Origin: Thermoplasmatota archaeon
Lineage (GTDB): Archaea; Thermoplasmatota; Thermoplasmata; UBA10834
Direction: 5' to 3'
Assembly (NCBI GenBank): GCA_963818745.1
Contig: CAWFTI010000001.1
Span: 156,422-220,421 of the forward strand
DNA length: 64,000 bases
In this document: piece after piece, positions 2,561-60,446 of the stretch
Position numbering within the stretch: the first letter of the stretch is position 1
How the letters are laid out: each line of letters opens with the position of its first letter
Position numbers and translations under genes: made by a program
The notes under the pieces: model-generated
What the model was told of the DNA's origin: nothing
What the model saw: the letters and a program-made list of their open reading frames with translations, nothing else
Databases searched by the model: none

Positions 2561-4020
2561 ATGGCGCTCGTTTTGTACAACACGCTGACGAGGAAGAAGG
2601 AACCGTTCGAGCCGCTCGCAGACGGGAAGGTCGGCATGTACGTCTGCGGCGTCACGGTGTACGACCAGTCACACCTCGGCCATGCGAAGTCGGCCATCAA
2701 CTTCGACGTCATCGCCAGGTACCTGAGGCACAAGGGGTACGAGGTCAACCACGTCACCAACTTCACCGATGTCGACGACAAGATCATCAACAGGGCGAAC
2801 GAGCTGGGCATGGAGCCGCTCAAGCTGTCGCAGACCATGATCGACGAGTACCACAAGGACATGGACGCCCTCAAGATCAAGCGGGCCAGCGTCTACCCGA
2901 AGGCGAGCGAGACGATGCCCGACATCATCTCGATGGTCAAGGGGCTCATCGACAAGGGATACGCGTACGAGTCGAACGGCTCGGTGTACTTCAGCGTCCA
3001 TAAGGCGAAGGAGTACGGGAAGCTCTCCGGACAGAGCCTCGACCAGATGGACGCGGGCGCGAGGGTCGAGGTCGGGGAGGACAAGCGGGACCCGATGGAC
3101 TTCGCGCTCTGGAAGGCGGCGAAGCCGGGCGAGATCGCCTGGGATCAGCCCTTGGGGCAAGGGCCGACCGGGATGGCACATCGAGTGCTCGGCCATGTGC
3201 CTGAAGCACATCGGCAAGACCGTAGACATCCACGGAGGCGGCACCGAGCTCGTGTTCCCCCACCACGAGAACGAGATACTGCAGTCCGAGGCGTACAACG
3301 ACGCCCCGTTCGTCAGATACTGGATGCACAACGGCCTGCTGACGATCGACCAGGAGAAGATGTCCAAGTCGCTGAAGAACTTCTTCCTGATCAAGGACAT
3401 ACTGAAGAAGTACTCGCCCGAGATCGTGAGGTTCTACCTCCTCAACGCGAGCTACAGGCAGCCGCTCGACTACGACGAGAAGTCGCTCGAGGAGACCGGA
3501 AAGGCCTTGGAGAGGCTGCAGAACGCGTACGACGTCCATGAGGTCGATGAAGGAGTCCGCATCGGGTAGCGAGGATGCCGCCAAGCTCTGCGACGATGCT
3601 CGAAAGCAACTTGAGGAGAGGATGGACGACGACTTCAGCACGAGGGAGGCCATTGCCGTCATGTTCGACTTCTCGAGAGATGTGAACACGCTTGCCAGCG
3701 ATGGGAAGCTCAGCAGGAAGGGCGTCGAGAACGCCATCAGTGTCTTCAGCGAATTCAACGGACTGTTCGATGTCCTGATTGAGAGGGAAAGGCACGTGGT
3801 CACCAAGACCCTGACCATCGAATCTGGCCTTCCGGACGTCGCCTCGATGACCAGGGAAGAACTGGCGGACGACGAACGTGTCACTCACTGGGTGGAGATG
3901 AGGCAGGCCGCACGGTCCAAGAAGGATTTCAAGTACGCGGACGCGGTCCGGAACAAGCTACTTGAGTTCGGCATCGAGATACAGGACGGCAAAGATGGTG
4001 CCGCATGGAAGCGAAAGTAA
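2561..4020 (+). pseudogene. cysS: Cysteinyl-tRNA synthetase, split over three frames (two +1 breaks)
   Basis: The first part carries the HIGH region (CGVTVYDQSHLGHA). The frame is lost at about 3146, where the sequence reads tgg gat C agc cct tgg ggc aag; removing one base restores [19 protein letters not shown]. The second part (3195-3569) contains KMSKS. A second break lies at about 3530-3570, before ...RMDDDFSTREAIAVMFDF (the anticodon-binding domain). Confidence 0.9.
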
Positions 4021-12856: not shown

Positions 12857-14292
12857 TCAGGAGCGCTTCGCGACCGACTTGATGTACTCCACCATCTTCC
12901 TGTCGACCGCGGGGTCGAGCGGAACCTCGATCCTGTGGTCCTTCAGGATCTGCGCGGCCCTCTTTCTCGCCTTGACGACGATGTCCTTCTCATCCCCCTG
13001 GGAGTCCCAGGCTGACCGGGAACCTCTCCAGAACGAGCTGGGGACGTAGCCCTCCTTTCTGAAATGCCTGAGCGTGTGAGGGCTGCTCAGGAACCCTCCA
13101 GACATGCCCGCGGCAGCGATCACATCGACCGCCAGGGTCTCCTCGGTCACATCGACCCCTGCGAGGATTCTCTTGACCTCGCCGCAGACATCGTTGTCGA
13201 GGACGAGCTTGGCATAGCTCGCAGTGAGGCTGGATTCGATGCTACCAGCAGCGTCGTACACGAGATCCAGGCCCGCCATTCCCGCCATGAGCATGGTGGT
13301 GGCCGTCTCGACACCGGACTGGTAATCGGCAATCATAGCCTCCGTGTTGCCGCCAGTCCCCCTGATCGGCATCCTGTAGTGTCTCGCCAGCTGAGCGGCT
13401 CCTGCCATGATGAGCCCGACCTCGGGCGCGCCCAAGGCGATCGAGCCCGTCCGCATGTCCATCATGCCAGAGACCGTGCTGTACAGCGACGGAGCACCCC
13501 TCTTGGCCAGTTGGGCGACGGCGACGGACGCGAGGACCTCGACGTTCTGCTGGACGAGCAGGCCGGCGATGGTCGCGGGAGACGTCCCGCCGGCCATGCA
13601 CTCGGGGGGATAGCACGTAGGCTGTCCGGCCCTCGCATACACGATAAGGCCCTCGGTCGTCTCCTTCGACAGAGTGAGCGGGCTCACCGGGTTGGCGAAC
13701 CCCAGGACCATGGGCCGTCGCGGCGAGTTCGTCCCTCCCTCCGGCGACGATCGCGGCGAGGTCGATCGACTGCTCGGTGGGGGTCTTGCCCCAGTTCCAG
13801 CCATCCATCGTCTTCATCGAGTGCTTGAACCCCAGATATATCTCCTGAAGAGGGCCTATGGATTCCGGCACGTCCCTGGGCCAGCATACCCACGACGAAT
13901 GATCTATGTGCGGGAGCGCGTCCGTGAGCCTGAAGAAGTTCTCGGAGTCCTTGACGGTCGAGGGCCTCACGACGCCGTCCAATCCCTCCACCTGGACAGG
14001 GGTGCCCACGCTGCTCAGGTGCACCTTGCCCTCACCGAAGGCGATCTCGTGCTTCCCGTCCCTGCCGTGGAGCTTGAACTTGCTGGGTGCGCTTGAGATG
14101 GAATCCCTGAGCACCCGCTCGGGGATCTTGACGATGCTGGTCTTCTTGTCGAGATTCAGCGCCTGCAGATACCAGCAGGCTGGCCGCTTCCCGCTCCAGG
14201 ACCCTGATGCCAGTGCTCTCGAACACTCTTACCGTGGCGGAATCGATCTTCTCTATATCGGCCCTTGAGAACGGCTCGTACCTCGCGACCAT
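12857..14292 (-). pseudogene. MttB-superfamily (trimethylamine/quaternary-amine:corrinoid) methyltransferase, split over three frames
   Basis: N-terminus: MVARYEPFSRADIEKIDSATVRVFESTGIRVLEREAASLLVSAG. A break at about 14158-14166 leads into LNLDKKTSIVKIPERVLRDSISSAPSKF...IDLAAIVAGGRDEL. A second break at about 13716-13726 leads into RRPMVLGFANPVSPLTLSKETTEGLIVYARAGQP...HTLRHFRKE. Both breaks are frame changes, not in-frame UAG codons. Confidence 0.8.
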
Positions 14293-14330
14293 GCGGACCC
14301 CAACCTCCTTTGTAGGAATGGAACCGGTAA

Positions 14331-14525
14331 ATGCCACGGCCGCTATCTAGTTTCGTGAAGAAGAGGAGAAAAGACACAGTCCTCACGTGCCCCCAGTGCG
14401 GCTCCGCGGACCTGTACTACGAGACCGCGCTGATCACCGGCTACAAGTACCACTGCAAGAAGTGCAACTACATCGGGGCTTTCGTGGTCGAGAAGGATAT
14501 GGAAGAGAGCGACGCGAAGAAATAA
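14331..14525 (+). CDS. Small zinc-ribbon protein
   Basis: CPQCGS...x22...CKKC. The real start is possibly GTG at 14355. It is divergent from the MttB-like gene. Confidence 0.45.
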   Translation: MPRPLSSFVKKRRKDTVLTCPQCGSADLYYETALITGYKYHCKKCNYIGAFVVEKDMEESDAKK

Positions 14526-14555: not shown

Positions 14556-15779
14556 TTACGCGAACATCGGGCCCGATTCCATGCCCTTCTGGACGCATTC
14601 CTCAAGGACCTTGTTTATGGCCTTCTCGAAGTCCGCCGCGGTCACGTAGTCCCTGTTCTCGCGGATCGCGAACATGCCCGCCTCTGTGCACACCGCCTTG
14701 ATGTCCGCACCCGTCGCGCCCTCGGATTTCGCAGCGAGGTCGTCGACGTTGACCGATTCCTCGAGGTTCATGCGCCGCGAGTGTATCTTGAATATCGCTA
14801 CCCTGGACTCCAGGTTCGGGATGGGTATCTCGATGATCCTGTCGAACCTGCCCGGCCTGAGGAGCGCCTCGTCGAGTATGTCCGGCCTGTTGGTCGCGCC
14901 GATGATCTTGACCTCGCCCAGCGGGTTGAACCCGTCGAGTTCCGCGAGTATCTGCATCAGAGTCCTCTGGACCTCGCGGTCGCCGGAGGTCGCGAGATCG
15001 AGCCGCTTCGCGCCCACGCTGTCCAGCTCGTCTATGAACACTATCGACGGGGCCTTCTGCCTGGCCAGGTCGAACAGCTCCCTGACCAGCCTCGCGCCCT
15101 CACCTATGTACTTCTGAACGAGCTCTGAACCGACGAACCTGATGAACGTGGCATTGGTCTGCCTCGCGACAGCCTTCGCGAGGAGCGTCTTGCCAGTACC
15201 CGGGGGACCGACCAAGAGGACGCCCTTCGGCGGGTCTATCCCGACCTTCTTGTAGAGTTCGGGCCTGAGGAGCGGGTCCTCGACCGCCTCGCGTATCTCA
15301 AGGATCTGGTCCGCGAGCCCGCCGATCTCCTCGTAGCTGATCTCCGGTTTCGAAATGATCTCGGCGCCGACCACGATCGGGTCCAACGACGGCGGCAGGA
15401 CGCCCATGACTGCCAATGTCTGCTTGTTGAGTGCGACCCTGGCTCCCGCCTCTAGGAGCTCGGGGGCGACGTAGTCCGAAGTGCTTACGACGAAGTCCGG
15501 GCCCGTGGAGCTCTTCACGACGACCCTGCCGTCCGCGAGCACATCCTTGATCTGCCCTATGATGAGCGGCGGGGCCTTCAATCGCTCGAGCTCCGCCTTG
15601 AGCCTCTTCAGCTCCTTCTGCAGCCGGATCAGCTCGCCCTCTGCGAACCTCTTCTCGCCCTCTACCCGTCGGGATTCCTCGACGAGCTCGAGGTTCCGTT
15701 CCTCAAGGACCGAAATCCGTCGATGAATCTCGTCGTACATTTCGGTCGTCTGCTCGTTTGACAATTTATTGCACCCCAT
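14556..15779 (-). CDS. pan: Proteasome-activating nucleotidase (AAA+ ATPase)
   Basis: 407 aa. N-terminal coiled coil ([19 protein letters not shown]), OB region, Walker [16 protein letters not shown], Walker B IVFIDELD, and a C-terminal hydrophobic-aromatic-X tail (MFA). Confidence 0.93.
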
Positions 15780-49244: not shown

Positions 49245-49265
49245 GAGCAAACTTCGAGAGACGAG

Positions 49266-49338
49266 TGGGCCCGTCGCGATTTGAACGCGAGTCACCAGCA
49301 CCCCAAGCTGGAAGGATACCAAGCTACCCCACGGGCCC
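49266..49338 (-). tRNA. tRNA-Pro (anticodon GGG)
   Basis: Reverse complement: GGGCCCG TG GGGT AGCTTGGTA TCCT T CCAGC TTGGGGT GCTGG TGAC TCGCG TTCAAAT CGCGA CGGGCCC A. This gives a 7-bp acceptor stem, G18G19, U33, G37 and a T-loop TTCAAAT. The anticodon is at 49302-49304. CCA is not encoded. Confidence 0.85.
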
Positions 49339-52601: not shown

Positions 52602-53747
52602 TCAGGGATCGCCCATTTTGTCTTTGGGCTGGTTGGTGTCAGCAGCGAGCTTCTTCCGCTTCCTCGCGAACCAGAACGACAGCCCCGCGCCGCACGCCAT
52701 CAGCCCCGAGAGGGCCAGGATCTCGGGGAGGTTCTCCTTCACCCAGTCGCGCATCCTGCCCGCGAAGCCGGACTCATCGATCCCCACGATGGTGTCTATG
52801 GTCACGGTGGAGTTCGCATCTGGGAGCGGGAATGCGGAATGCAGCACGAGCCCCGAGCCCGTGGTGTAGTACGAAGACCTCAGGGGCTCTTCCACCTCGG
52901 TCCCGTTCGTCTCGCACACGTACACGGAGTTCCATTCATAATGCGCCTGAACCGTCCAATCGTCCTTCGCGAACTCTATCTCCTGCATGGGGAGTCCGGT
53001 CTCGGCGAAGGAATGGGTGAAGTTCTCCCCCAGGTCCGTCTCGTCCACCCTTCCGGATACCTCGACCAGAGCGACATCGTCCTCGCGGCTGGCCTGCTTG
53101 AGGAGGAACACGGAGTTCGATCCCCCGCCTTGGAGCATCTGCTCCATGGCCGCCCCGGTCGCGTTGACCTGCTTGTTGATCCTAAGGGTCATGTTGGTCC
53201 TGATGTCGGTCTTCCCGTTGACGACATATGACCCGACCGAGCTGGAGCGAACCGTCGAGTTCTCGGTTATGGAGAACCAGAACGTGGCCACCGCCCAGTC
53301 GCTGACCTCGACCATGCTCCCGTTGTCCAGGAGCTTGGACGCCGACAACGACCCCGTCATCCCGAACTGGGCGTAGGAGCCGTTGACCTCGTCGACCCCG
53401 GAGTCCATCTGCGAGAGGTTCCAATCCACATGGTTGGAGTCCAGGTAGACCGTGTACGCGGCCTCGGACCGCGCGAAGACGCCGTCCTCGTTCGTGTCGT
53501 TGTACAGGTACATGCGCGGGATCCCCGCCTCGAAGGTGGGGGTCCAGGGGTCGACCGTGTGCCAGAAGATGATCCTGGGCCAATCGTAGGTGACGGCGGC
53601 GGTGAGGTTGCCCGATATGATGCCGATGCCGGTGTCCCCAGGGTTGACGACCAGGGCGTAGTCCTCTGCCCTGACGGAGGACGACAGTGCTGCCGAAAGG
53701 ACTATGCAGCAGGTCAGTGCGGCCAGGGCCCTGCACAACATTCGCAA
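52602..53747 (-). CDS. Predicted surface glycoprotein (signal peptide plus C-terminal TM anchor)
   Basis: N-terminal hydrophobic leader MRMLCRALAALTCCIVLSAALSSSVRA. About 11 N-x-S/T sequons. C-terminal TM ILALSGLMACGAGLSFWFA followed by RKRKK. Confidence 0.6.
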   Translation of the reverse strand: MRMLCRALAALTCCIVLSAALSSSVRAEDYALVVNPGDTGIGIISGNLTAAVTYDWPRIIFWHTVDPWTPTFEAGIPRMYLYNDTNEDGVFARSEAAYTVYLDSNHVDWNLSQMDSGVDEVNGSYAQFGMTGSLSASKLLDNGSMVEVSDWAVATFWFSITENSTVRSSSVGSYVVNGKTDIRTNMTLRINKQVNATGAAMEQMLQGGGSNSVFLLKQASREDDVALVEVSGRVDETDLGENFTHSFAETGLPMQEIEFAKDDWTVQAHYEWNSVYVCETNGTEVEEPLRSSYYTTGSGLVLHSAFPLPDANSTVTIDTIVGIDESGFAGRMRDWVKENLPEILALSGLMACGAGLSFWFARKRKKLAADTNQPKDKMGDP

Positions 53748-53839: not shown

Positions 53840-54487
53840 TCAAACAGCGAGCTTCGTCTTCAGCTTGCGGGTCTTCCTGACCCTCTGCACGCCCTGGCCG
53901 AGCACCGCGAAGGGCACCTCGCAGTAGCCGTCGCCCTCGAGCTTGAAGGCCTTGATGTCCTTGTTCAACGGGTCGATCACGACCGCGCTGTGATACTCCT
54001 GGCTGAACATTGTCCGTTGGGTCTCCAGGTCGGTCCTCGACAAGAAGCAGGTGTGCCCCGGGTGGGAGTGATACCAGCCGACCAGTATGTAGTCGAACCC
54101 CGAGTCGTCCAGCTTGCTGAACAGTCTCGGGAACGCATCCGGGTCGAACCTGACCTTCGCGGAGGAGCTCTTGAGGTGGGTGGTCACGACGTCCCTCACC
54201 AACGCGTACGGCCTCCCCTTCCAGGTGAAGACCTCCCCGAGGAGGAACCCCATCACCTCGAGCCTCTTGGGGGCCTCCTTGAGGGCGTGGTCCATGATCT
54301 TCTCCTTCGCGATCCAGGAGAGGTACAGGTCGAACGGCCCGCTGAGGGTGGCTGTCCGCCGGTAGAGGTCGGCCGACTCTTCGGACAACCAGTCGTGGGG
54401 CCTGATATCCTCCCTGGACGGAGGCTCCCTCTCCTCCGTCTCTCGCCTGGTCTCCTTCAGTATCTTCGGCCTAGGCATCCGCACCAC
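53840..54487 (-). CDS. JAMM/MPN+ metalloprotease (Rpn11/JAB1-like isopeptidase)
   Basis: Conserved Glu in LEVMGFLLGE and the JAMM motif WYHSHPGHTCFLSRTD (HxHx7Sx2D). Start is GTG 54487 or ATG 54481. It overlaps the E2 gene end. Confidence 0.85.
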   Translation of the reverse strand: MVRMPRPKILKETRRETEEREPPSREDIRPHDWLSEESADLYRRTATLSGPFDLYLSWIAKEKIMDHALKEAPKRLEVMGFLLGEVFTWKGRPYALVRDVVTTHLKSSSAKVRFDPDAFPRLFSKLDDSGFDYILVGWYHSHPGHTCFLSRTDLETQRTMFSQEYHSAVVIDPLNKDIKAFKLEGDGYCEVPFAVLGQGVQRVRKTRKLKTKLAV

Positions 54488-54992
54488 CTATGATCCTTAT
54501 CCTGCGGTCGGACTGGTCCATCACCAGGGGCGGGCTGTACTTGTTCCTGTTGAAGTACGCGGCCGCGCGCGTGCACGTGTCGCTGCCGAACGGGTTCTTG
54601 GGGTTCGGGTTCACGAGCAGCGATTCTATGCCCTTGATGAACGTGACCAGGTTCGAGCTGAAACCCCAGTTCTCGAGCAGCTTCGTGCAGACGTACCCTC
54701 CGTCGTCCGGGGGCATGATGTTGGGATGGAAGATGGGCGTCAGCCACTTCACGATTGGCTTCTCGACCGGATAGTCCTCGTTGATGAACACGGACATCCG
54801 ATGGACGAACCTGTGGACGACCTTGTTCTCCTCCCAGGAAGGACCTGGCACGCGCAGGAAAGTCACATTGACGAGTATCGGGAACGCGTGAAGGGTGGGG
54901 TCCGAGACTGTTATGTGATGCCTGAGCTCGCGCTGGCACATCTCGATCTCGTTCCTAAGGCGGATGCGGAGCACGTCTGCGGGAAGTGCCAT
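54471..54992 (-). CDS. Ubiquitin-conjugating enzyme (E2/UBC fold)-like protein
   Basis: 173 aa. FINEDYPVEKPIVKWLTPIFHPNIMPPDDGGYVCTKLLENWGFSSNLVTFIKGIESLLVNPNPKNPFG contains the YP..P.v.F...i.HPN motif, a catalytic Cys (codon 54687-54689), the downstream W and LL..PNP..P. The ATG lies 5 nt after the Ubl stop. Confidence 0.8.
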   Translation of the reverse strand: MALPADVLRIRLRNEIEMCQRELRHHITVSDPTLHAFPILVNVTFLRVPGPSWEENKVVHRFVHRMSVFINEDYPVEKPIVKWLTPIFHPNIMPPDDGGYVCTKLLENWGFSSNLVTFIKGIESLLVNPNPKNPFGSDTCTRAAAYFNRNKYSPPLVMDQSDRRIRIIGGADA

Positions 54993-54997
54993 CTCGA

Positions 54998-55186
54998 CTA
55001 TCCGCCTTCGGGGTCGGGTATGAGTTCCAGAACATCCTCGGACCTGACACCAGCTTCCTTCAGCGAGGTACCGCCCCTGAGCACCTTCTTCCCCTTCCTG
55101 AGCACGTAGGCACCCATGTCCTTGCTCCAGAAGGTAGCTGCGCTCTCGATTATCTCGTCGACGGTGTTCTCGTCCTCGAGCTCCAT
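54998..55186 (-). CDS. Ubiquitin-like beta-grasp protein ending in Gly-Gly; the true 5' end probably lies upstream (up to 55254)
   Basis: The C-terminus is ...VLELIPDPEGG-stop. The open frame upstream of ATG 55186 reads FRIKVKNAETGAAVE(M)ELEDENTVDEII, which aligns to ubiquitin strands 1-2 and helix 1 ([25 protein letters not shown]). There is no in-frame ATG/GTG/TTG between the stop at 55271-55273 and 55186. Confidence 0.7.
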   Translation of the reverse strand: MELEDENTVDEIIESAATFWSKDMGAYVLRKGKKVLRGGTSLKEAGVRSEDVLELIPDPEGG

Positions 55187-55298
55187 CTCGACGGCAGCAC
55201 CCGTCTCTGCGTTCTTGACCTTTATTCTGAATGCCAGAAGACCACCGCCTTCACTGGACAGTTTGGCAGGTTATATGGTTTTCGAGTACCTGTAATAG

Positions 55299-56091
55299 TT
55301 AATCCCCCTTGGGATGCACCGGGCACGCGGGGTCTAGAGATATCTCAATCTCCTCTGAGACGTTCCTCTGGCCGTCGTAGTAGAACACGTTCGAGAGCAT
55401 CATGTCGGCCTTCCCGGACACCTGCTTGAGCGCCTCCCTGACCATGACCGCTGACACTATGCTGGTCGTGGTTATCTCGGCGGCCAGTCTCGGCTCGTGG
55501 AACACGACGTCCTTGCCCGTGCAGCTGTACCTGAGGCCCGCGACCTTCGCGTGGGACTTGTTCATACCGCACTGGACGCACGCGCCGTCAGGCGGCCGAA
55601 CGACCGTCACCTTCCCAACGAACCCCTCCATGCCGCCGTCGATGTACACCCTGCCGGCGGCGTACGAATGGGAGTTGGAGTGGAGCCTCGCCAGTATGTT
55701 GTCGAGACAGCCGAGGACGATGTCGTGCTCCGCGAAGAATCCCTCGGGCTGGTCCTCGACCCTGCCCACGATGTGCTCGACGGTCGCGTCGGGGCTGATC
55801 CTCCGCATGCCCTCGGCCACGACCTCTGCCTTGGCCCGTCTCTCAGAGACATCCTCCTTGCAGAAGAAGAGGCAGCGGTTCAGGTTCGACCCGACCACGT
55901 GGTCCATGTCGACTATCGAAATCCTCCTGAAGCCGGAGAGCACGAGGTTCTTGCCGACCTCGTTCCCGAGGCGCCAGCGCCGACCATCAGCACCCGGACC
56001 TGGACACCGCGTCCATGTCGAGCCACTTGATGCGCCTGGACCGGTCGAACCTGTCGTCGTCGACCGCGCCCAACTTCAGCTGCTCCTCCAC
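55299..56091 (-). pseudogene. E1-like (ThiF/MoeB/UBA-type) adenylating enzyme, split over three frames
   Basis: GTG at 56091 starts VEEQLKLGAVDDDRFDRSRRIKWLDMDAV. A break at about 55996-55998 leads into RVLMVGAGA. A break at about 55970-55972 leads into LGNEVGKNLVLSGFRRISIVDMDHVVGSNLNRCLFF...CVQC...SCTGKD...ACPVH. Each break is explained by CCC read as CC on the coding strand. Confidence 0.8.
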
Positions 56092-57249: not shown

Positions 57250-58843
57250 GACCGAGCACCTGCCAGGAATTGCGCGTAGGGCATGATAAGCCTTGGGCAC
57301 CGACGCCGGGCGGAATGGGACGGCACGGAGGACATGCCGACCGCGCGCAGGCATCTGACCATGAACCGACCGGGGTCACTCGAACCTGTCGAGGTAGGCC
57401 GTCGGAACAGTCTTCTTGATGCGTCATCTCGTCGTACTTCCTGAGGAGGTCCTTGATCCCCTGCCTCACGCCCTTCTCGAGCTGGACCGGCCTGTGGGAC
57501 TCGAGTATGCGCTTCGCCTCCTTCCTCGCCGCGAGGACGATCGGCTCCTCGCGAGCGTCCGGGGCGGACGCCTGCATGGCGATCCTGGGCATGAGGCTCT
57601 CCGACCTGAAGAACTTGAGAGTGTGCGGGTCCTTCATGAAGTAGCCTCCGGGGCCGACCCTCGCGATTGCGTCGAAGCCCATGGTGGCCTCGGATACATT
57701 GATGCCTCTCCAGGCGCGCATGATGTTCCGCCAGAGCTCGCAGTCGAGCACGACCTGCTCCACTGATTCGCATCCGGACCTGTCGAACCCACCTATGCCG
57801 ACGATCTGGTCCGCGCCCGCGAGCGCGGGCAACAGGCCGCTGATGGCCTTCTGGTAGCCGATCTCGTATCCTGGTCTGCAGCCAGAGGCGGCGACGCCGC
57901 CGACCTGCGCTGGGAGACGGTACCTTCGGGCCATCTGGCACCCGGCGGCGTTGATGAGCGCGCCCTCTGTCGAACCGGACAGGAACACCCCGGTCCTCAT
58001 GTCCATCGGTCCGGATTCTGAGCTGTACAGTACGGGCGCTCCGGGCGCGGCCGTTTCCGAGATGACCGTGCCTGCGAGCACCTCCGCGTTGACGACAGTG
58101 ATCGTGCCCGCGAGCGTGACGGGGGCTACGGACCCGCAGATCGCCATGGAGAGATGGACGACTGGCAACCCGGCACGGGCGAACTCGATGACCGCATCGA
58201 CGTCACCCTCCTCGTACCTCAGGGGCGTGATGGGCGTGTGAGTGATCGATATGATCGGCCTCTTCTTGAGCTCCTTCTCGGAGCCGACGATCATCGCTGC
58301 GGCCTCTATCTGGAACCTGGCGTCCTCGACGCAGCCCGCCCCGTGCTGCACGTGCTTGCCGGTGTAGAACACGGATGCGGCGAACTCGTGGTTGTTCGAG
58401 ACGTCAGGAGGCAGGTCCGTTGCGACGACCTCCGGCCAGTACAGGTCCACCTCGGGCATCGCGTCGCACACGAGAGTAAGGTCCACGAGGTCCGCGACGG
58501 TCGATTTCCTCTTCTTCTGGGTGTCGATGTCCCAGACATCGGTCGGCTGGCCGTCGTTGACGCCGTATACTCTGTCCTCCGCCGGGAGCTTCATGTCGCG
58601 GGCTTTGTCCCTCGCGGCCATGACGAACTCCTTCGGGGCCTTCGCCAGAGATTCCCTGACGAGGGATTCCGGGAGCTTGACTATCTGCGTCTTCTCGTCG
58701 ACGGACGCCCCCGCATCCTTCAGCATCTTGAGGGCCTTCAGGCTCGTGACCTTGATGCCTATCGTCTCGAGTATCCTGATGGATTCGACGTGCACTAGGT
58801 CTTCCTGCTCACGGGTCAGCGGGTTGAGGACGGCTCTTGCCAA
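57221..58843 (-). CDS. MttB-superfamily methyltransferase (no in-frame UAG); the C-terminus is probably frame-shifted
   Basis: REQEDLVHVESIRILETIGIKV, ITHTPITPLRYEEG, LPVVHLSMAICGSVAPVTLAGT, DMRTG, KDPHTLKFFRSE. After ...LLRKYDEMT the ORF runs about 65 aa into Cys/Pro/Arg-rich sequence. Dropping one base near 57418-57424 gives IKKTVPTAYLDRFE-stop at 57376, which is a typical family length. Confidence 0.8.
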   Translation of the reverse strand: MARAVLNPLTREQEDLVHVESIRILETIGIKVTSLKALKMLKDAGASVDEKTQIVKLPESLVRESLAKAPKEFVMAARDKARDMKLPAEDRVYGVNDGQPTDVWDIDTQKKRKSTVADLVDLTLVCDAMPEVDLYWPEVVATDLPPDVSNNHEFAASVFYTGKHVQHGAGCVEDARFQIEAAAMIVGSEKELKKRPIISITHTPITPLRYEEGDVDAVIEFARAGLPVVHLSMAICGSVAPVTLAGTITVVNAEVLAGTVISETAAPGAPVLYSSESGPMDMRTGVFLSGSTEGALINAAGCQMARRYRLPAQVGGVAASGCRPGYEIGYQKAISGLLPALAGADQIVGIGGFDRSGCESVEQVVLDCELWRNIMRAWRGINVSEATMGFDAIARVGPGGYFMKDPHTLKFFRSESLMPRIAMQASAPDAREEPIVLAARKEAKRILESHRPVQLEKGVRQGIKDLLRKYDEMTHQEDCSDGLPRQVRVTPVGSWSDACARSACPPCRPIPPGVGAQGLSCPTRNSWQVLGHGFLRRSWI

Positions 58844-59464: not shown

Positions 59465-60446
59465 TCAGGGGTTCGGGGGAGCTGGAGGGGACTGCTGAGG
59501 GGGTGACAGTGGGGGCATCTCGGGCATCGGCTGCAACGGAGGCGGAGCCTGCGACGGCCCGGACCTCCTTTTCATGACCAGCAACAGCACGACGAGGACA
59601 AGGACCGCAAGGGCGATTCCAACGCCAGCGAACACGAGTATCACCGTCGAGAGACCTCCGGTGTCGTGCGAGTACTCGTTCATCTCGAAGGTGGTGTAGG
59701 GTTCGCTAGAGTCCTCGGAGTACAATTCAATCTTCACAGCGTCGCCCGCCACCTCAGAGTACCATCGGACTTCCCGACCTCCGTCCTCGTCGGTCACCGT
59801 GAACTTCAGAGTGTCGAAGGTCCCCGCTGGGACTGTCACGCTCTCCCTGGCGGAGGCAATCGAGTATTGGTAGGTCAGCACTTCCGTGCCCGACTCGTTC
59901 AGTACCTCGTCCGTGTACACGGTTGTGACCTCGGTCACGGTCTCCTCCCAGGAATCACCAGGGCCATCTTCTGTCGGATCGAGTTCGGCACCCATCGGAG
60001 GCGAGTAGGTTGTGGTCGCTTCCGTCTCCTCCTGGGTGACTATTTGGAACGGATCCAATCCCCAGGTCACGTTAACATCCATCGTCACGTCTTCCTTGAC
60101 GGTGCCGTATCCATCCCTCGTCTCGTAGATCGTGCCGACAATCGACCCGAGGACCACCCAAGGCGAGCCGAGGATATCCACGCTCCCCGAGAAATCAGAA
60201 ATCATTTTGAGGACGCTGACCTCGTAGGAGGTGCCGTTCACAGTTGATGTCATCGTAGCCCTCGAAGGATATCGTCATCTCGCCCGAGACGTCCACTCCC
60301 TTGATGTTCGTGGCCATGTCATAGGTCCAGAATTCACCTTCCGATCTATCCATGGCGGCTACGGGGGCCGACGTCCCTACGAGGAACGCCGCCATAGTGA
60401 GCAGGCACCCGAACACGATTCTGCGTGATCTCATCATCGTCTCCAC
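59465..60446 (-). pseudogene. Membrane-anchored secreted protein with a Pro-rich cytoplasmic tail and one frame break
   Basis: The signal peptide part (METMMRSRRIVFGCLLTMAAFLVGTSAPVAA...ISFEGYDD) changes frame at about 60244-60254. It continues as STVNGTSYEVSVLKM...TM(VILVFAGVGIALAVLVLVVLLLV)...PPPLQPMPEMPPLSPPQQSPPAPPNP. Confidence 0.6.

Follow-up and report, generated by a model that had tools for sequence, protein, structure and literature searches.

Current accounts of the origin of ubiquitylation rest on the operons of Caldiarchaeum and the Asgard archaea, which include a RING-type ligase (E3), and, more recently, on the bacterial Bil and Bub operons. The Caldiarchaeum and Asgard operons, described as Clusters I and II (Hennell James et al. 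2017, PMC5654768; see also Fuchs et al. 2018, PMC6043591), comprise ubiquitin, an activating enzyme (E1), a conjugating enzyme (E2), the RING protein srfp and Rpn11. Here, we analyzed a 64-kb stretch of contig CAWFTI010000001.1 from a Thermoplasmatota archaeon (hereafter the window), which holds a four-gene cassette encoding an E1-like enzyme, a ubiquitin-like modifier (Ubl), a UBC-fold E2 and a JAMM metalloprotease. We consider it likely that this cassette is a genuine, vertically inherited housekeeping Ubl-conjugation system of uncultured Thermoplasmata, assembled from parts of eukaryotic and archaeal type in a minimal form.

Two earlier surveys probably included the same proteins. Fuchs et al. 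2018 (PMC6043591) mentioned a 'JAMM-3' group of prokaryotic JAMM proteases, nearer to Rpn11 and CSN5 than JAMM-1 and JAMM-2 are and found in operons with ubiquitin, E1 and E2 but without E3; no taxa are named. Lu et al. (bioRxiv 10.1101/2023.07.25.550441) recovered a 'Ca. Thermoplasmatota E2' clade of PF00179 proteins as a deep branch of the archaeal E2s in their E2/UEV tree. These two papers offer a cluster map or a tree only, with no operon, Ubl sequence or start codon, E1 architecture, synteny or experiment. In the survey of Grau-Bove et al. 2015, the Euryarchaeota were represented by one marine group II cell only. Our searches of the literature on Thermoplasmata, Thermoplasmatota and Methanomassiliicoccales in connection with ubiquitin yielded no description of the operon, and the word 'ubiquitin' occurs zero times in the papers on Thermoplasmatota orders that we found, including that on RBG-16-68-12/'Ca. 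Yaplasmales' (PMC9239135). These E2s already carry the annotation of ubiquitin-conjugating enzymes at NCBI and JGI, which curtails the novelty that the original prediction had implied. What is known thus amounts to E2s in databases and one phylogeny, while the operon, the Ubl, the minimal E1 and their conservation are undescribed in the literature searched.

The cassette consists of four minus-strand genes that run in one direction, as seen in the open reading frame (ORF) listing and by three-frame translation. All four lie where they had first been placed, and profile and structure searches back every fold, establishing as genuine the set of E1, GG-terminated Ubl, UBC-fold E2 and JAMM claimed at the outset. 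The features are as follows:

55299-56091, minus strand: E1-like Ubl-activating enzyme with a ThiF match; GTG start at 56091 and TAA stop at 55299.
54998-55237, minus strand: Ubl of 79 residues with a beta-grasp fold; CTG start, ending in ELIPDPEGG followed by TAG.
54471-54992, minus strand: UBC-fold E2 of 173 residues with a Pfam UQ_con match.
53840-54478, minus strand: Rpn11-like JAMM/MPN+ metalloprotease of 212 residues with a Pfam JAB match.
55271-55284, minus strand: BRE/TATA-like promoter element CGAAAAC-CATATAA, from the alignment of E1-Ubl spacers.
55241-55249, minus strand: Shine-Dalgarno-like GGCGGTGGT, 4 nucleotides 5' of the Ubl CTG start.

The junctions are tight. As the original prediction had it, the Ubl stop is separated from the E2 ATG by 5 nucleotides, and the E2 and JAMM genes overlap, by 8 nucleotides or by 17 if the GTG start of JAMM is used; the spacer between E1 and Ubl measures 61 nucleotides.

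The E2 matches Pfam UQ_con (PF00179) at 52.7 bits against a cutoff of 27 (E = 4.5e-14). Its best PDB matches by phmmer are eukaryotic E2-C (7.7e-14) and Ubc13 (2.7e-12), and 239 PDB E2 chains are retrieved at E <= 0.01. The AlphaFold2 (AF2) model, with a predicted local distance difference test score (pLDDT) of 88.4, comprises a helix at residues 5-22, four strands and helices at 115-127 and 138-149. Among its best 50 Foldseek matches only eukaryotic E2s are found, all with probability 1.0, in agreement with the UBC fold proposed from the sequence. The 22 family members compared all share H89-P90-N91, Cys102 in the DGGYVC motif, W109 and the loop-8 PNP without exception, and the loop-4 YPxEKP and loop-8 NPNPxNP motifs are present. 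Aligned with hhalign, the E2 family profile matched human UBE2D2 with 96.7% probability (4.5e-10) and the Caldiarchaeum E2, whose sequence was taken from the supplement of PMC5654768, with 94.8% (4.8e-8); no match was obtained to E. aridi BilB (0.1%). The C-terminal tail RRIRIIGG (residues 163-170, 54483-54506) is disordered yet conserved. It follows the basic-hydrophobic motif [RP][RK]-I-[RV]-[IV]-[IV]-G, loosely resembles a Ubl tail, and could be an E1-docking or auto-modification element.

For the Ubl, searches with the single sequence gave borderline scores (Pfam ubiquitin E = 0.03, YukD 0.004, single ubiquitin chains E of about 0.25), and a clear assignment came only from the family profile, hhalign and the AF2 model. 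The profile, built from 27 diverse members, can be aligned with human ubiquitin over the full length (hhalign 83%, E = 8.7e-6) such that GG falls on GG, and its PDB matches are ubiquitin-family chains only. The model (pLDDT 90.7; predicted template modelling score, pTM, 0.80) has the b-b-a-b-b-b topology of a beta-grasp, and Foldseek matched it to SUMO1, ubiquitin, Hub1 and the Caldiarchaeum ubiquitin with template modelling (TM) scores of 0.80-0.86 and probability 1.0. Its structural neighbours are therefore ubiquitin and SUMO, not MoaD or ThiS, and the beta-grasp called from the sequence proved to be of ubiquitin/SUMO type. The C-terminal ELIPDPEGG is invariant, with the stop codon directly after it here; the gene ends in GG-stop in 72 loci, and residues past the GG (GG+1 or GG+3-10) occur in about 12.

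The start of the Ubl gene bears on how it is annotated. The codon at the homologous start position is CTG (55235-55237); canonical starts appear only from an internal ATG at 55186 onwards, which opens a 62-residue ORF. Across loci, the start codon is CTG in 40, TTG in 15, ATG in 15 and GTG in 7, and the CTG start is common to all conspecifics and to many other species with perfectly conserved Ubl genes. Because Ubl starts at CTG or TTG, gene callers report the truncated 62-residue ORF. All 229 Ubl homologues that we found are labelled 'hypothetical' and carry no Pfam domain. With the Ubl truncated or missed in this way, the number of complete systems in these archaea will be underestimated by surveys of annotated proteins. 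The retention of a weak start codon on the operon's best-conserved gene may limit how much Ubl is made. We also note that R65 is the last Arg or Lys of the Ubl (C-terminus 54998-55045), so that tryptic digestion would leave modified lysines with a 14-residue SEDVLELIPDPEGG remnant, and Glu-C, cutting after E77, with the familiar GG.

The JAMM protein matches Pfam JAB (E = 2.2e-12) and Prok-JAB (7e-8). Counted from the ATG called in relatives it has 212 residues, and the alternative GTG start extends it to 54487. Its catalytic residues are intact (E74, H137-S-H-x7-S-x2-D150), the pattern E...HSHPG..CF.S..D is kept across 63 JAMM sequences, and an N-terminal extension of about 55 residues precedes the domain. 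The best PDB matches are yeast Rpn11 (3e-14), PSMD14 (8e-13), the Caldiarchaeum Rpn11 homologue (1.3e-11) and CSN5 (1e-9), and the score against the desamp_Halo model is 45 bits compared to a cutoff of 130. The protein is predicted to be a deconjugase and, in lineages where residues follow the GG, also a Ubl maturase.

The E1 of the window becomes a 264-residue protein after repair of two 1-nucleotide deletions (near 55995 and 55970), and the corrected frame matches Pfam ThiF at E = 9.5e-45. It comprises a single ThiF/MoeB-type adenylation domain with a CxxC...CPxH zinc site. Between these two pairs of zinc ligands, Cys191 in an R-x-S-C-T-G crossover motif is invariant in 56 sequences and is a candidate for the thioester residue. 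The best PDB matches are UBA2 (1.4e-24), UBA3 (4e-22), MoeB (1.3e-17) and BubCD (5e-7; 4.7e-7). Similarity to the Caldiarchaeum E1 extends over the adenylation half only (34% identity over residues 7-175); the architecture differs, in that alignment of the MoeB-sized, 264-residue protein with the Caldiarchaeum E1 revealed neither a separate Cys domain nor the C-terminal ubiquitin-like domain (UFD). Only about 30 residues lie between the CxxC and the TTTS helix, and 4 residues follow the CPxH zinc motif.

We then considered how widely the cassette occurs, scanning E2 relatives in one genome per GTDB species. Relatives were found in 113 species-level genomes, and the 80 loci kept for layout all derive from metagenome-assembled genomes (MAGs) labelled Thermoplasmata, Thermoplasmatota or Methanomassiliicoccales, closed chromosomes included. 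Members of distant E2 clusters carry the names Methanomassiliicoccaceae, Ca. Methanomethylophilaceae and Ca. Sysuiplasma. In an exhaustive HMMER search for the wider family, the number of clusters rose from 29 (E <= 1e-30) to 94 (<= 1e-10) and then to 3136 (<= 1e-3). The order E1-Ubl-E2-JAMM is compact in 49/80 loci and gapped in 6/80, and a further 17/80 hold Ubl-E2-JAMM without an adjacent E1. The same four-gene order in 55 of 80 independent species-level loci is far beyond chance.

The surroundings are conserved as well. TrpRS and PheRS lie upstream of the cassette and an L18e-L13-S9-RpoN cluster downstream; the latter is nearby in about 50 loci, 20 of them distant. In the nearest 40 or so species the immediate flanks are retained too, with MttB and M29 aminopeptidase genes on the upstream side and a gene for a membrane protein on the downstream side. 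ORF clustering of the loci was noisy owing to spurious high-GC ORFs, and was used only for a coarse view of the ribosomal-protein synteny and for the absence of further conserved partners. Mean identities are 82.7% for the Ubl, which is the most conserved protein of the locus, 77.7% for E2, 68.5% for E1 and 60.1% for JAMM, compared to 64-74% for neighbouring housekeeping genes. That Ubl and E2 outrank the flanking housekeeping genes in conservation argues for a vertically inherited core function rather than a defence island.

Natural gene fusions support a functional coupling of Ubl, E2 and JAMM. One protein, P0252 (L096:259-2099), reads ...IPDPTGG-ANLPEDLL... and is encoded in an operon with a 213-residue protein and a JAB protease; its Ubl part runs straight into the N-terminus of E2, which implies that in this lineage the Ubl is set free by a JAMM. 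The same family includes E2-JAMM fusions and a tandem double-E2 protein (P0244, 682 residues; P0259, 534; P0280, 352). In one E2-JAMM fusion the JAMM motif is degenerate and a C-terminal zinc ribbon follows; another has a Cys-less E2 plus a beta-propeller. About 15 clusters combine, in one protein, a Ubl-like domain and an E2-like domain with another residue in place of the catalytic Cys. Examples of about 225-235 residues (P0268, P0272, P0278 and P0391) consist of an N-terminal Ubl-like part without GG and a UEV-like, Cys-replaced E2 domain, and one such Ubl-UEV-like gene (L097:5001-5708) stands alone next to an Arf/Ras-like small GTPase and a DUF835 gene.

Compared to the Caldiarchaeum and Asgard operons, the Thermoplasmata cassette shares the ubiquitin-fold modifier with GG, the E2 with HPN and catalytic Cys, the Rpn11-like JAMM and the operon form, and its components are likewise nearer to eukaryotic than to bacterial proteins. 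It differs in that no RING srfp is found nearby, the 264-residue E1 has no inserted Cys domain or C-terminal ubiquitin-like domain, most Ubl genes encode the mature form (GG-stop) and not a pro-protein, the JAMM gene sits inside the operon and overlaps E2, the host belongs to the Thermoplasmata, and E2 and E1 are only 32-34% identical to their Caldiarchaeum counterparts.

With BilABCD (types I and II) and Bub the cassette has in common the set of E1, E2, Ubl and JAB without E3, a UFD-less E1, and a JAB maturase/deconjugase, which in our case is a predicted activity. BilB-type E2s, however, have a CEHH catalytic Cys/His motif and lack HPN and the C-terminal helices, both of which the Thermoplasmata E2 possesses; BilD and BubCD are larger E1s (IAD plus AAD, with a CYS domain) of distant similarity (5e-7), in contrast to the single adenylation domain here; and Bil is found in defence contexts, whereas the Thermoplasmata cassette occupies conserved core synteny. 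Only the gene content of the cassette resembles Bil. The cassette had been interpreted as lying between the archaeal and Bil/Bub types. Its E2 matches UBE2D2 and Caldiarchaeum, not BilB, and its E1 matches UBA2 at 1e-24 versus 5e-7 for BubCD. Of that interpretation, the eukaryote-type cassette, the Thermoplasmata host and the lack of a linked E3 stand, whereas the novelty was overstated and the Bil/Bub placement was wrong.

The SAMP/UbaA/JAMM1 and Urm1-type systems resemble the cassette in three parts: the E1 is MoeB-sized and has no Cys domain, the modifier is a beta-grasp protein with a terminal GG, and a JAMM serves for deconjugation; SAMP is archaeal too. Unlike these, the cassette includes an E2, stays far under the equivalog cutoffs for UbaA (E1, 76.8 versus 450 bits) and for the desampylase (JAMM, 45 versus 130 bits), and has a Ubl similar to ubiquitin and SUMO rather than to MoaD and ThiS. 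By functional analogy only, eukaryotic SUMO and Ubc9 illustrate how a single E2 could modify substrates directly and independently of an E3. UBA2, the best PDB match of the E1, is a SUMO E1 subunit, and the Ubl in turn counts SUMO1 among its best structural matches; unlike the SUMO system, the cassette has neither a heterodimeric E1 nor a UFD.

Several observations weigh against an active, self-sufficient conjugation system. The E1 lacks the Cys domain and UFD that eukaryotic and Caldiarchaeum E1s use for E2 loading, and transfer from E1 to E2 therefore cannot be assumed. The E2 has W-G-F-S-S in loop 7 in place of the eukaryotic W-S-P and, in the HPN-to-Cys alignment, a 3-residue insert ahead of the catalytic Cys relative to eukaryotic E2s. 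In the window, the E1 frame is broken twice within 26 nucleotides, and no ATG, GTG or TTG precedes the first beta-strand of the Ubl. The E1 gene is not adjacent in about 20 distant loci. Modification of the test substrate in the Caldiarchaeum system, Rad50 of S. acidocaldarius/S. solfataricus, required the RING protein srfp (PMC5654768), and our own scan for RING proteins was a sequence-pattern search of ±6-10 kb around each cassette.

One rival explanation keeps the same pathway but makes it dependent on an E3, with substrate specificity given by a RING, U-box or other ligase encoded elsewhere. We regard this as possible, though on balance doubtful. The need of the Caldiarchaeum enzymes for srfp speaks in its favor and makes a truly E3-free system conjectural; the E2 loop-4 YPxxKP resembles the E3-binding loop of eukaryotic E2s, and the unlinked E1 genes show that unlinked components occur in this system. 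On the other hand, Caldiarchaeum E1 and E2 alone suffice for auto-ubiquitylation (PMC5654768). The predicted lack of a linked E3 was borne out, since C3H2C3, C3HC4 and relaxed RING patterns were absent from every frame of the 64-kb window and of 98 related loci. ORF clustering identified no further gene family that co-occurs with the cassette in both near and distant clades, and the RING-contact W-S-P of loop 7 is replaced by an invariant W-x-F-x-S. We also examined the genes that intervene between E1 and Ubl (L015, L048-L052) as E3 candidates and rejected them; they encode an opposite-strand 275-residue protein, a membrane protein and an ABC-transporter pair.

Decay of the cassette in this strain, with real E1 frameshifts and a lost Ubl start codon, is improbable. 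It would account for the two interruptions of E1 and for the missing canonical start of the Ubl, but neither is a sign of degeneration when relatives are considered. The exact E2 protein is found on 19 public contigs, including NCBI GCA_001800715.1, and conspecific contigs are about 96.5% identical to the window DNA. An intact 264-residue ThiF gene is present in 10/10 conspecific contigs examined, relative to which the window is one base short at each of the two sites. Frameshifts also affect the essential CysS gene and at least three others, which suggests that the sequence is at fault; all conspecifics and many other species likewise start the Ubl at CTG, and the E2, Ubl and JAMM ORFs are intact. 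By sequence comparison, both E1 frameshifts are assembly or sequencing indels specific to this assembly and not biology. With conspecific E1s intact and indels in other genes of the window, E1 appears functional in the organism and the window appears to come from an indel-bearing assembly.

The window is indeed rich in single-base frameshifting indels (2561-4020, 12990-14416, 55970, 55995, 57421 and 60242). CysS (2561-4020) is broken at least twice, its catalytic-domain profile stopping at 191/301 and DALR lying in another frame, and the MttB-like gene at 12990-14416 needs two frameshifts. Through the indel at 57421, an MttB-family gene acquires a spurious C-terminal stretch that runs into the aminopeptidase gene; another indel lies at 60242, and a 309-residue gene has been stripped of its N-terminus by an indel. 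This pattern suggests assembly or sequencing error, for example in a long-read consensus, rather than pseudogenes.

An antiviral operon of the bacterial Bil/Bub kind that tags phage proteins, an option raised by the original prediction, is unlikely given the core-genome synteny, and we consider it a very slim prospect. The E3-less four-gene content is that of Bil (bioRxiv 10.1101/2023.09.26.559546), and PADLOC returned weak matches of the E1 to the adenylation part of the CBASS Cap2 'E1-E2' models. Beyond generic adenylation-domain and JAB matches, however, PADLOC found nothing for E2 or Ubl, and viral contigs scanned with the E2 profile contained no relatives. The 0.1% probability of the E2 profile against BilB and an E1 that is far nearer to UBA2, UBA3 and MoeB than to BubCD also argue against this option, as does the fixed syntenic site amid tRNA-synthetase, aminopeptidase and ribosomal-protein genes in dozens of species, unlike a patchy island. 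Most likely, the cassette tags proteins as a housekeeping function and does not serve in defence against phages.

In archaeal SAMP/UbaA systems, protein tagging and sulfur carriage are combined, and this duality lends some plausibility to a reading in which E1 and Ubl work mainly as a carrier of sulfur (MoaD/ThiS/SAMP-like) in the thiolation of cofactors or tRNA. The E1 has the size of MoeB and a MoeB/ThiF zinc site, and it matches MoeB at 1.3e-17. Its scores nevertheless fall far under the NCBIfam cutoffs for MoeB, ThiF and UbaA (76.8 versus 450 bits for SAMPActivE1UbaA), the structural neighbours of the Ubl are ubiquitin and SUMO instead of MoaD and ThiS, and no rhodanese or sulfurtransferase gene is present within the operon. 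Together with the tight coupling to a catalytically intact E2 and JAMM and the natural Ubl-E2 fusions, these data make a predominant sulfur-carrier role very unlikely.

Although the best solved-structure matches of E2, E1 and JAMM are eukaryotic, there is a negligible probability that the cassette was mis-binned or recently acquired from a eukaryote, the Asgard archaea or the Aigarchaeota: GC content is uniform across the window, in 113 species the cassette is set among syntenic housekeeping genes of the Thermoplasmata, its E2 and E1 share no more than 32-34% identity with those of Caldiarchaeum, and closed Thermoplasmata MAG chromosomes bear the cassette, confirming a Thermoplasmata host rather than one from the Aigarchaeota or Asgard archaea.

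Returning to a housekeeping conjugation system, we infer the following thioester relay. The E1, probably a homodimer by analogy with MoeB and ThiF, would adenylate the C-terminal Gly79 of the Ubl, which in this organism would be mature as encoded (GG-stop). A thioester would form on the crossover-loop Cys191 of E1, and the Ubl would then pass to Cys102 of E2, whose charged form could be aminolyzed by substrate lysines, either directly or with a partner encoded elsewhere. The Rpn11-like JAMM would remove the tag and recycle the Ubl, and would trim precursors in lineages with residues past the GG. The gene for PAN, likewise predicted at 14556-15779, was confirmed; it lies 39 kb from the cassette and shows no linkage to it, and any connection of the tag to PAN or the proteasome we infer rather than observe.

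The spacer between E1 and Ubl offers a plausible control region. In most near-clade loci, CGAAAAC-nnTATAA/TTTAA occurs at the same position, followed in order by GTCCAG, a GGTGGT/GGTGAT Shine-Dalgarno string and the Ubl start codon, and GGTGGT/GGTGAT lies 4-8 nucleotides before the Ubl start position in nearly all loci. From this alignment and known archaeal promoter architecture, the element is probably the BRE/TATA promoter of a Ubl-E2-JAMM transcript, a placement that fits with E1 being unlinked in some loci. The three genes are probably expressed as one translationally coupled transcript, with the Ubl translated from its weak CTG/TTG start behind a strong Shine-Dalgarno site. Coupling is suggested by the Shine-Dalgarno-like string before the E2 ATG and by the overlap of the E2 stop with the JAMM start. 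The former falls in the PEGG-stop codons CCC GAA GGC GGA TAG (GAAGGCGGATAG; 54993-55012), where GAAGGCGGA is a near-repeat of the GAAGGCGGTGG string preceding the Ubl start; the di-glycine codons of the Ubl may thus double as the E2 ribosome-binding site.

Among the other features of the window, a gene at 52602-53747 lies immediately downstream of JAMM in the same direction, is 37-47% identical within the near clade and has no Pfam match. Judged by eye, its translation seems to begin with a signal peptide, to contain numerous N-x-S/T sites and to carry a membrane anchor at the C-terminus; the product is probably a surface glycoprotein and, because the gene is absent from distant clades, probably lies outside the system. 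A TAG at 13242, seemingly in frame in the MttB-like gene, pointed to a pyrrolysine-using methanogen; this lead was rejected, as three-frame translation places the TAG out of frame in a gene that needs two frameshifts. ARAGORN detected tRNA-Pro(GGG) only (49265-49338), and an Rfam scan of the whole window at gathering thresholds returned no family, not even tRNA.

We tentatively advance a bolder form of the housekeeping interpretation, which we judge possible but well short of probable: an ancient, vertically inherited, E3-less ubiquitin system of the Thermoplasmatota, in which a UFD-less, MoeB-like E1 loads a UBC E2 and the E2 itself selects the substrates. If true, the cassette would be a living example of the step between the E2-less SAMP/Urm1 systems and the E1-E2-RING systems of Aigarchaeota, Asgard archaea and eukaryotes, and the origin of canonical ubiquitin and UBC E2, or else an early transfer of them, would lie outside the TACK/Asgard lineage. 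Its four tractable proteins lend themselves to asking whether a UBC E2 can be charged by an E1 that lacks UFD and Cys domain, and whether tagging can proceed free of an E3. Next to the Caldiarchaeum/Asgard and Bil/Bub operons, the Thermoplasmata cassette constitutes a third, widespread arrangement, which combines a canonical Ubl and UBC E2 with a primitive, MoeB-sized E1, no linked E3 and a site in the core genome.

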